DNA of 64,000 nucleotides. Origin: a virus (taxonomy: Duplodnaviria > Caudoviricetes). The stretch spans positions 26,446-90,445 of the IMG/VR virus record IMGVR_UViG_3300035422_000096, one strand, 5' to 3'. A model generated the notes under the pieces. That model did not search any database. It had not been told where the DNA came from and was given only the letters and a program-made list of their open reading frames with translations. Positions 40,059 to 41,463 of the stretch are shown one piece after another. A program made the position numbers and the translations under genes. Position 1 is the stretch's first letter; the number at the start of each line of letters is the position of its first letter.

Positions 40059-40298
40059 ATGACAATAAGAACCAACAAAGAACTTGCTCAAGCAGTCAAT
40101 GAAGCAATAAAGGAGTCTGGATATAAAAAGAACTGGATCGCTGATCAATTAGGTATTAGCAGACAAGCGTTAACACATTTCCTGCAAAAAGCAAACTTTA
40201 GCATTGACGATGCAAACAAGATTTTAGATATTATCGGATATAAAGCAAGTGCAAAAGTTGATAAAAATATTTTACAAAAAGTTGATAAAAACAGTTGA
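40059..40298 (+). CDS. XRE/Cro-type HTH protein
   Basis: KKNWIADQLGISRQALTHFLQKANFS. Confidence 0.8.
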   Translation: MTIRTNKELAQAVNEAIKESGYKKNWIADQLGISRQALTHFLQKANFSIDDANKILDIIGYKASAKVDKNILQKVDKNS

Positions 40299-40323
40299 CA
40301 AGTAAAGGCAAATAGTCTATAAT
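40295..40323 (+). promoter_or_regulatory. Consensus sigma-A promoter
   Basis: TTGACA-17-TATAAT. Confidence 0.85.
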
Positions 40324-40330
40324 AATACTT

Positions 40331-41463
40331 GTAAGGAACACAAGGGAAATAAAGAAAAATCCCCGTTCCTTTCGAAACAGGGAAATTTCAAGAGTTGTTA
40401 AACTCCATCTCGCAAATTGAGTATAACACAATTCTTGACAATCTGTCAATCGGCAGAAATTTCCCAAAAACAAAGTAACTGCAAACGTCCTGTAAAGTGG
40501 AGTGCTAACAGGATCGTAACCAAGGCAAAGTAACAAGAGATTGCAAACGAGGTTAGAGAAAAGATAATTGATTCATTAAATTTCCGCAACCTAACGGGAA
40601 AACGTGACAGATAGCAGCGTAAAAATGTTATCCGTGTTGACTGGACACGCTGACTACATCGGGGACGTGATAGTTCATATCATATCAGACGTAGCAGGGA
40701 ATACCATCCCAAACCAGAAAATCTATGAATATGTGTGAATGCGAGTAGGCAGAAACAAGAGTTTTGTGGTGACTGATTCTGAAACCATGACCTGTGGGGT
40801 GTGGTAGCCGTAACGGGAACGAGAGACAATCTACTATAATATAGATAGCTCTTTTGATGATAATTTATCGCTGTAGAGGATGGACAGGGAGAAAACACAA
40901 AACGATAGACTATATTATTTACAAGCGTTCACAAAAATAAATCCTTGTAAATATCATTGGTAATTGTAAACCGTGGTTATGGAAGGCTGAGAAATACGTC
41001 TTCCAACCGCTAATAAGCGGTATATAAATATACATAAGAACCTTTAGAGAGTGTCAATCAATTTTGATACTCTCTTCTATAATTAAAGCGGTCAACTGCT
41101 TTTCAAAAAGGAATGTGATGTCAGCGAGAAGAAATCAAGAAATAAGTATTATAACCTGTGAGGGCTACCAATTATATAAGTAATAAGTTGCGTATATATC
41201 ATAATATGATTGAGTGCTACTTATATTAAGGTAATAAGTGCATATACCAGGCGCAAGGAAAAGCGTAAACCATGACACAAATTTTCGCATTTGAAAAATT
41301 GTAAATATAATTACATAATTTTATTATTTACCATACCCACAAAAATAAGAATCAAACGTGAGGCGATGCGGAAAGCTGGTGAACCACTCAATACAATGAG
41401 GACATAGCCATTAAAGCTGGATGCATTTAGCCGTATCCCTTGAAAAGTCTCTTTTGTGGGCAT
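40331..41463 (+). ncRNA. ~1.1-kb hairpin-dense non-coding RNA, family unknown
   Basis: No plus-strand ORF of 60 codons or more; stems at 40380-89/40456-65, 40389-98/40428-37, 40836-44/40910-18, 41046-57/41064-75, 41333-44/41452-63. Confidence 0.6.

Follow-up and report, generated by a model that had tools for sequence, protein, structure and literature searches.

Introduction

Phages and prophages encode large, ornate RNAs, among them ROOL and GOLLD (Nature 2025, PMC12286853), and approximately 8,500 candidate structured RNAs with a mean length of about 67 nucleotides (nt) have been compiled for viruses (PMC10690425). In this article we describe a dedicated and conserved transcription unit for a non-coding RNA (ncRNA) in a phage of the mouse gut, located at positions 40295-41481 of a 64,000-nt stretch of DNA (the "window", to which all coordinates without a further label refer). 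The window comprises bases 26446-90445 of the IMG/VR virus record IMGVR_UViG_3300035422_000096, a record of 90,445 bases with an estimated completeness of 58%. The plus strand of the unit is structured and its sequence occurs in RNA libraries, its modules are exchangeable among related phages, and a convergent gene for a small RNA is embedded in its leader.

Countertranscripts are familiar from Gram-positive plasmids, where prgQ and Anti-Q of pCF10 are transcribed from convergent promoters, and RNAIII of pIP501 and the antisense RNA of pT181 act by attenuation. In temperate phages, the P4 CI RNA and the P1/P7 c4 RNA are cut from the sense transcript and act on the leaders of ant or the alpha operon. 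The put RNA of phage HK022, which consists of about 70 nt forming two stem-loops, mediates processive antitermination, and both put and the antitermination RNA EAR are far smaller than the RNA considered here. Finally, RNA II of ColE1 primes the replication origin under the control of the antisense RNA I.

The RNA of the window resembles ROOL and GOLLD as a heavily structured ncRNA of several hundred nt from phages or prophages of Firmicutes, which lacks an obligatory neighbouring protein gene. This phage also possesses transfer RNA (tRNA) genes, but they lie on the other arm, 13-20 kb from the RNA locus. In contrast, neither ROOL nor GOLLD matches this RNA in sequence or structure, and neither has been described with an antisense RNA gene in its leader, whereas the body of the present RNA is exchangeable for unrelated sequence. 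The plasmid loci of pCF10, pIP501 and pT181 share with the window a sense promoter that faces a convergent promoter for a small, terminator-ended antisense RNA of two hairpins directed against the 5' leader. In addition, a small helix-turn-helix (HTH) gene is found just upstream, comparable to copR of pIP501, and the interaction loop varies between lineages as it does among plasmid countertranscripts. Unlike the plasmid transcripts, however, the sense RNA of the phage is linked to neither a rep nor a conjugation gene and has no attenuator terminator after the target, and the antisense RNA is unrelated in sequence, with no Rfam countertranscript family matching at E<=10.

The P4 CI and P1/P7 c4 RNAs are likewise small structured RNAs from the early or immunity regions of temperate phages, which pair with a leader of the same region and differ in specificity between relatives; here, the predicted small RNA would instead be made from a separate, convergent promoter and would regulate a large ncRNA, and no Rfam match was obtained. 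Similar to HK022 put, a folded RNA directly follows an early phage promoter ahead of an operon, yet this RNA measures 1150 nt, contains swappable parts and is followed by downstream promoters. Large structured phage RNAs and countertranscript-controlled leaders are therefore known kinds of element; new are this RNA family and its combination of an antisense gene in the leader, a large RNA and a swappable body, which are uncatalogued in Rfam 15 and in the literature searched.

Promoter, coding potential and folding

An earlier note, written from the sequence alone, had described the stretch as a hairpin-dense RNA free of open reading frames (ORFs) behind a perfect promoter, and each of these features was borne out. 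The promoter reads TTGACA-17-TATAAT exactly at 40295-40323, and there are four perfect matches of this kind in the 64 kb, compared with 0.18 expected by chance. In one homologous locus (L015; L labels denote the loci and contigs compared with the window) it takes the variant form TATTAT with a 16-nt spacer. The promoter overlaps the last codons of the upstream HTH gene (40059-40298), which encodes 79 amino acids (aa).

The following stretch of about 1150 nt contains no ORF beyond chance. Between 40299 and 41531 the longest plus-strand ORF comprises 44 aa, and the longest stop-to-stop frame on either strand, with 82 codons, equals the mean of 200 composition-matched shuffles (82). The longest frames in eight homologs shift in place and strand, and no frame is positionally conserved. 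The coding signature of an intact or decayed protein gene is likewise missing from the alignment, as insertions and deletions of 1, 2, 4, 5 and 11 nt occur among the homologs and most indel lengths are not divisible by three. A tblastx comparison with the relatives gave matches confined to the flanking genes, and no ORF remnants were seen that would betray a decayed gene.

The sequence folds far better than dinucleotide-shuffled controls: the minimum free energy of 40325-41470 amounts to -289.9 kcal/mol, compared with -243.7 +/- 7.8 kcal/mol for the shuffles (z -5.9), while the minus strand of the same stretch reaches z -4.1. Two halves of 600 nt yielded z values of -2.6 and -6.6, and eight coding controls of 600 nt from the same window ranged from +0.27 to -1.88.

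Homologous loci and exchange of modules

Homologs were sought by exact-word scans seeded from the region, which returned four viral contigs (L013-L016), five metagenome contigs (L017-L021) and three genomes (L022-L024). About nine phages or prophages from mouse-gut Lachnospiraceae, all related, share the unit. The distinct homologous loci are L013/L020, L014, L015 (which equals L024), L016, L017, L018, L019, L021, L023 and L028, and they stem from viral contigs, metagenomes, two metagenome-assembled genomes (MAGs) of Lachnospiraceae and the isolate 1xD42-87. The 40-nt match in L022, taken at first sight for a distant homolog, is a spacer of a CRISPR (clustered regularly interspaced short palindromic repeats) array, and no copy of the RNA is present there. 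None of 50,697 GenBank phage records matched the region in a BLASTN search. Since only two further partial matches were added when 401 genomes from the family of the isolate were searched at the DNA level, the element is rare and follows this phage lineage. A match of 22 nt in genome G043 lies within coding-like sequence and was treated as chance.

The prophage L028 (genome G190) harbours the same leader and antisense unit and the same 3' modules, termed M4 and M6, but these surround an unrelated sequence of 546 nt instead of the body. The replacement is itself more stably folded than its shuffled controls (z -2.35) and is unlike any of the sequences compared. In L017 and L018, on the other hand, the body is placed behind another type of leader. 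As the body is swapped in L028 and found behind other leaders, it behaves as a cassette. Among most copies the body is 93-99% identical, and 70-80% in L014, L016 and L018.

The copy of the RNA in L023 is broken off at window position 40779. At L023:5840-5900 (MAG MGBC140242) the break is followed by GATTCGATTCCCGTTGCC, reminiscent of a tRNA 3' portion, with a strong terminator behind it; the joint may have arisen by recombination or at an attachment site, or may be a mis-assembly.

Two further, more distant relatives, L002 and L003, were found via the upstream HTH protein; their corresponding ORF-poor stretch is dissimilar at the DNA level. By eye, the HTH gene of L003 is followed at L003:5215-5400 by TTGACA-17-TATTAT, a leader with a convergent TTGAAA-17-TAGAAT and a minus-strand terminator. 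About 1 kb of mostly ORF-poor sequence follows this leader, and the layout of L002 and L003, again judged by eye, is the same as in the window, with unrelated sequence. The early regions of these two phages, which lack the RNA described here, also contain a skipping-rope RNA (RF02924, 76.6 bits) at L002:7934-8014 and L003:8310-8390.

Covariation and modular anatomy

Eight sequences covering 40466-41135 were folded jointly with RNAalifold. The consensus comprises 164 pairs, and 95.4% of the cells are paired. Sixteen pairs are changed on both sides, compared with 6.7 +/- 1.9 in column shuffles (0 of 500 shuffles reach 16) and with 2-6 in controls in which the partners were slid by 1-3 columns. 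The domain with a long-range closing helix (Table 1) encloses the hairpins 40766-40788 and 40791-40817, the first of which is supported by four compensatory pairs and carries a conserved 13-nt loop (GACUGAUUCUGAA). Further supported helices are found at 40791-40817 and 40664-40686 (two compensatory pairs each) and at 40697-40710, and a long-range helix of the body pairs 40516-40525 with 40971-40980. In L018, which represents a third lineage, several of the body helices are kept with further changes. The consensus is more stable in the forward direction (-98 kcal/mol, including 25 G.U pairs) than as the reverse complement (-81 kcal/mol), and therefore the plus strand is the structured one. The best-conserved segment of the RNA falls into the body, where 35 nt (40538-40572) are invariant in all copies.

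Downstream of the body, M6 forms 55 pairs, three of them compensatory, and C>U changes in this module give G.U pairs on the plus strand. In L013 the helix of M6 is kept and its interior is replaced. The linker segment 41230-41310 is common only to the window, L013 and L015, the latter two of which add 290-335 nt of other sequence.

Several of the hairpins that had been listed beforehand were recovered. The stems at 40380-40465, around 40487-40514, at 41046-41075 and at 41333-41463 reappear in consensus folds of the homologs; that at 40919-40958 is absent from L015, L014 and L016, and that at 41176-41226 is an insert of the window only. The stem proposed at 40333-40372 overlaps a hairpin (40360-40383) which is fully paired only on the minus strand, where it forms a terminator. 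The idea of a single multibranch molecule of 1.1 kb did not hold up, given the modular locus and the two lineage-specific inserts, and the alternative guess of several units agrees with the modular anatomy. The 1.1-kb stretch is thus real and structured, but modular rather than one fold.

The leader and its antisense unit

The leader contains a 10-bp helix (GGGAAAUUUC/GAAAUUUCCC), in which 40380-40389 pair with 40456-40465, and in most relatives the leader carries an insert of 77 nt after 40349. Its minus strand, which the earlier note had overlooked, has to judge by the sequence the anatomy of a countertranscript gene: a conserved convergent promoter is followed by a putative recognition stem-loop and an intrinsic terminator, and the fold is kept. 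In the second leader type, found in L017 and L018, the place of the antisense promoter is occupied by TTGAAA-17-TATACT. The terminator hairpin (40360-40383) includes two U.G pairs, is fully paired only on the minus strand and is there followed by a U-run; in L013 a U.G pair is changed to A-U. In eight loci the predicted countertranscript measures 63-72 nt and adopts the same minimum free energy fold of two hairpins, and the sequence of stem-loop 1 differs among the loci while its pairing is kept.

No plausible peptide is encoded in the leader on either strand, and neither an ORF nor a ribosome-binding site was found there. The sense RNA shows neither an attenuator terminator nor a blocked ribosome-binding site, as no plus-strand terminator-like site occurs between 40330 and 42457.

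A second place in the window resembles the start of the RNA. Within 63030-63290, ATACTTGTAAGGAA, a 14-nt sequence identical to 40325-40338, stands behind a promoter-like site; about 230 nt devoid of ORFs come next, and then a GIY-YIG-like gene. Although at chance level (E 0.3), the match is suggestive by its position.

Presence in RNA libraries

Four metatranscriptome studies, of mouse gut or of related samples, provide contigs that cover the locus, and the region is thus present in assembled, unstranded contigs of RNA libraries. Run X15 provides a contig of 1535 nt that spans 39845-41379 with 100% identity, and run X16 one of 1088 nt spanning 40073-41160. A 1587-nt contig of run X19 matches the window only at 40475-41145, and both of its flanks are unlike the window. 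Variant contigs in runs X18 and X19 carry 40767 T>C together with 40787 A>G, by which a U-A pair becomes C-G. Within the hairpin 41046-41075, the variants 41068 T>C (G.U to G-C) and 41067 A>G (U-A to U.G) are tolerated only on the plus strand, and run X18 contains a joint from 41166 to 41230 in the linker. The contigs miss 41380-41541 and other parts, and their depth is uneven between neighbours; hence, they were used for presence only. They support expression of the locus, short of proof.

Comparison with Rfam

The earlier note had not recognised the sequence as an intron, tmRNA, RNase P, GOLLD or OLE, and Rfam 15 gives no match either: at the gathering score, the whole window yields four tRNAs only, and a scan of 39800-41800 with all families at E<=10 gave nothing credible. 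Matches with E values between 1 and 10 (PyrR, L10 leader, snR32 and others) lie far below the gathering score and are due to the minus-strand terminator hairpin. Fourteen homologous or related loci were scanned as well, with no match on the RNA. As proposed, the locus hence represents a structured ncRNA that is found in RNA libraries and absent from Rfam.

For the large RNAs, the ROOL model RF03087 (574 positions, gathering score 99.1 bits) had no match at E<=10 in the 90-kb record; the positive control was silent in 14 control genomes. The OLE model RF01071 (616 positions) gave no match at E<=10 either, a search in which oap genes were not looked for. GOLLD is absent from the all-family scan of 39800-41800 at E<=10, and from the window and the homologs at the gathering score. 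A GOLLD model is contained in Rfam (PMC12286853), and its accession could not be confirmed; RF01998 and RF01703, which were tried, are group-II-D1D4-1 and Dictyoglomi-1, respectively.

A CRISPR spacer against the conserved stretch

The array in L022 belongs to the Lachnospiraceae MAG MGBC142918 and consists of 35 repeats of 36 nt each. Its neighbours are cas6, cas10, whose product has an HD domain, and csm2-csm5 on the one hand and cas1, cas2 and csm6 on the other, a gene set that identifies a type III-A system. The spacer at 6868-6905 matches the invariant stretch of the body in seven loci at 38 of 39 positions and, with one mismatch more, the window at 40524-40563. Since the minus strand of the CRISPR locus carries all cas genes and two degenerate repeats mark its low-coordinate end as the trailer, the CRISPR RNA (crRNA) is complementary to the plus-strand RNA. 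Type III immunity requires a transcribed target complementary to the crRNA, and the spacer thus fits a plus-strand transcript that is made during infection. Accordingly, the type III-A spacer suggests such a transcript, and by its sequence it links the phage family and the RNA to a host lineage.

The complete type III-A locus corresponds to L022:5537-8001 with L030 (genome G002, contig C35) in the same MAG. A second spacer (7226-7261) has a match of 17-20 nt in the terminator hairpin that precedes the HTH gene (window 39977-39993).

Table 1. Features of the RNA locus in the window
Feature	Position	Strand	Remarks
Tandem 24-nt direct repeat (AAAAGTTGATAAAAA...)	40253..40300		3' end of the HTH gene, overlaps the -35 box; candidate operator, judged from its sequence
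Sigma-70 consensus promoter TTGACA-17-TATAAT	40295..40323	+	Hexamers kept in L013, L014, L016, L019, L020, L021
Leader	40331..40465	+	5' hairpin CUUGU/ACAAG, complement of the countertranscript, 10-bp helix; start placed from the -10 box
Predicted 63-nt countertranscript	40351..40413	-	Stem-loop 1, then 10-bp terminator; predicted ends
Antisense promoter TTGACA-18-TGnTATACT	40420..40449	-	11/12 matches; conserved in all copies with this leader
Exchangeable structured body, ~530 nt	40475..41005	+	Helices supported by covariation; swapped in L028
Most conserved stretch	40532..40572	+	41 nt invariant in five full-length copies; overlaps the CRISPR protospacer 40524-40563
Domain with long-range closing helix	40722..40884	+	40722-40738 with 40868-40884, three compensatory pairs
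Hairpin insert	40919..40958	+	Present in window, L013, L017, L019, L021; absent from L015, L014, L016
3' module M4	41034..41121	+	12-bp hairpin 41046-41075, hairpin 41084-41103; 85-89% conserved; kept in L028
Variable linker	41122..41311	+	Hairpin insert 41172-41229 in this window only
3' module M6	41318..41481	+	~26-bp closing helix 41319-41344 with 41452-41478, three-way junction

The phage and the neighbouring genes

DNA nearly identical to the window is present in mouse-gut metagenomes of many studies. The phage genome has a G+C content of about 31%, and its two arms diverge from a meeting point near 38-39 kb. Among its products are the large subunit of the terminase, a tail-collar protein, a TnpB protein and a 912-aa protein of the RdRP family. 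Related contigs have a length of 150-160 kb, and one of them belongs to the genome of "Bacterium 1xD42-87", an isolate cultured from mouse gut, others to Lachnospiraceae MAGs. This is a temperate-looking phage of about 150 kb from Lachnospiraceae of the mouse gut, with an RNA polymerase gene of the YonO type.

The 912-aa protein (28542-31280, minus strand) matches the Pfam family RdRP (PF05183, E 1.9e-9), which has the two-barrel fold of the YonO-type phage RNA polymerases, and this enzyme of the phage probably transcribes part of the phage genome. The TnpB/IS605 OrfB-like gene (16471-17679, minus strand) encodes OrfB_IS605 and Cas12f1-like TNB domains and lies inside the structural arm. A twister ribozyme had been proposed at 46388-46463. 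It is probably real but borderline: the stretch is 95% identical to L016:2702-2771, which passes as a twister-P1 ribozyme in Rfam (67.9 bits against a gathering score of 67.2), whereas the window copy stays below that score in the whole-window scan. A hammerhead ribozyme suggested at 39558-39616 had no gathering-score Rfam match in the window; the stretch lies outside the part scanned at E<=10 (39800-41800).

The HTH gene upstream of the RNA is conserved in five loci and replaced elsewhere. On the 3' side, at least five loci have a toxin-antitoxin pair behind the RNA. In the window and in L019 this pair is HigBA; L014, L021 and L028 have a DUF4258-like ORF (a reading made by eye) together with a zinc-finger protein. 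An unrelated gene for 115 aa, of no assigned family, comes directly after the RNA in L013, where a 561-aa gene in common with L016 is located further downstream. A position directly before the toxin-antitoxin cluster, which the earlier note had emphasised, is hence frequent (the window and at least four other loci) but not obligatory, and since L013 lacks a directly following pair, the RNA is not tied to this cluster. The neighbouring pairs are type II-like. Tandem repeats akin to the ~36-nt units of ToxI, as in type III toxin-antitoxin systems, are absent from 40331-41480.

At 41532-42422 of the window, HigB/HigA stands where relatives have the DUF4258-like toxin ORF before the zinc-finger gene (42195-42422). 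Loose ends of RNA-run contigs at 42131-42180 carry DUF4258-type sequence, and thus both alleles circulate in the mouse gut. The fourth perfect TTGACA-17-TATAAT promoter (43267-43295) precedes a gene for 62 aa (43313-43501), which had been called a ribbon-helix-helix gene and was assigned no family by a Pfam scan. Contigs over 43321-43621 have the top word depth (792, 1713) of the 9 kb examined, depth being a poor measure.

Proposed function and alternative explanations

We favour the reading that the locus produces a structured RNA that acts in trans and whose output is gated by the countertranscript, a role deduced from sequence features which we consider evenly poised between right and wrong. 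The consensus promoter would give rise to a plus-strand RNA of independently folding modules (the leader, the body of ~530 nt, M4 and M6), and the convergent promoter 125 bp downstream would yield a countertranscript of ~63 nt with its stem-loop 1 complementary to the leader hairpin. Loop-loop pairing, combined with collision at the convergent promoters, would limit the output of full-length RNA, and sequence variation in stem-loop 1 would endow each phage lineage with a specificity of its own. The body would be the working part in trans, either as a scaffold or decoy for proteins or as a self-assembling particle, and would pass from phage to phage in the manner of a cassette. Processing by an RNase III-type enzyme is likely at the long helix of M6 and would separate the RNA from the downstream messenger RNAs (mRNAs).

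Action in trans is ranked first because conservation of the body does not depend on the downstream genes, because it moves between leaders and is replaceable by another folded RNA, and because it contains long invariant single-stranded stretches, which are typical of contact surfaces. The roles suggested in the earlier note, those of a sponge, an antitoxin or an anti-defence decoy, are conjectural. An antisense target in the phage was not found, as complementarity of the RNA to the rest of the 90-kb record is limited to 13-14-mers at chance level.

Several points weigh against this reading. The ends of the transcript are inferred, and so are its gating, its processing, an action in trans and any target or binding partner. 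The RNA evidence consists of assembled contigs that carry no strand, ends or level and may include DNA carry-over, and the alignment holds only about three deep lineages and thus few independent covariation events. The CRISPR argument is weak evidence, as it relies on a single spacer for which the expected sense had a prior chance of 50%. Moreover, the sense leader lacks an attenuator terminator downstream of the antisense target, unlike in classical countertranscript attenuation. Finally, the first intrinsic terminator on the plus strand is located at 42457-42483, with none before the next genes, and therefore the RNA could simply be a long leader.

The main rival, which we regard as rather unlikely, builds on this last point. 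The RNA would be a long 5' untranslated region that controls the downstream genes in cis through antitermination, stabilisation or translation, with the countertranscript tuning read-through. No terminator separates the RNA from the higB-like gene, which starts at 41532, and in L013 the first gene begins ~35 nt after M6, with only a ribosome-binding site in between. The unit also opens the rightward early or moron region, whose early array contains plus-strand terminator-like hairpins at 46541, 48895, 57775 and 59850. Yet, the downstream genes differ among the homologs while the RNA is kept, promoter-like sites follow M6 (41481-41509), and a separate strong promoter at 45698 serves the many small genes arrayed from 46478 onwards. 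A swappable body of 530 nt behind varied leaders is hard to square with one conserved cis mechanism, and the known antitermination RNAs put and EAR do not approach this size.

Alternatively, the locus might be an array of separate small RNAs that are cut from a polycistronic precursor and have their own targets. This is in line with the varied combinations of modules, such as M4 and M6 without the body in L028 or the body without this leader in L017, L018 and X19, with the swapped interior of M6 in L013 and with hairpin inserts that come and go. The long, near-perfect duplex of M6 would suit RNase III, and the homolog of a nearby early-region element is a twister-P1 ribozyme. However, the long-range helices (40516-40525/40971-40980 and 40722-40738/40868-40884) join distant parts of the body, and no processing sites were seen in the contigs, which cannot show ends. 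We consider such an array improbable.

A replication element, the transcript of which primes or activates an origin as in ColE1 while the body serves as a replicon-specific origin, would account for a strong promoter, a long ncRNA and a small antisense RNA at its 5' end, the layout of RNA II and RNA I, and replication modules are commonly exchanged among phages. Neither iterons nor an AT-rich unwinding element nor a G-rich/C-rich hybrid-forming stretch is seen, however; the GC skew of the window turns near 37-39 kb, away from the locus; no ColE1-type RNA family matches in Rfam at E<=10; and compensatory changes together with G.U pairs possible on one strand only point to selection on an RNA fold rather than on DNA sites. 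This explanation is very unlikely. Lack of any function, with a variable, recombination-prone spacer or decayed genes transcribed by read-through, would fit the mosaic region with its many indels and the unrelated sequence at the same place in L002 and L003, but it is highly improbable in view of the invariant stretches of 35-41 nt, modules of 93-99% identity amid diverged flanks, compensatory changes in excess of controls, a dedicated consensus promoter, the lack of ORF remnants and indels that mostly are not multiples of three.

Implications for phage biology

Large structured phage RNAs of the GOLLD and ROOL type are among the least understood phage products, and the locus described here adds an uncatalogued family. 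It is tractable, since it represents a clear transcription unit with built-in antisense control and a copy, locus L024, is available in the cultured isolate 1xD42-87. The natural swap alleles, which combine the same leader and 3' modules with another body, constitute ready-made genetic controls.

If the trans-acting reading of the body is correct, phages would exchange folded RNAs as modules in the same manner as accessory protein genes. Going further, the site behind the antisense-gated leader might be an RNA-cassette locus, into which related phages load unrelated, large, folded effectors made of RNA only that would act in trans against hosts or rival phages; type III CRISPR systems of the host would select for replacement of the cassette, and the countertranscript would provide lineage-specific on/off control. 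We judge this extended scenario unlikely, but if true, such a locus would be the RNA counterpart of the protein-based anti-defence and moron islands.

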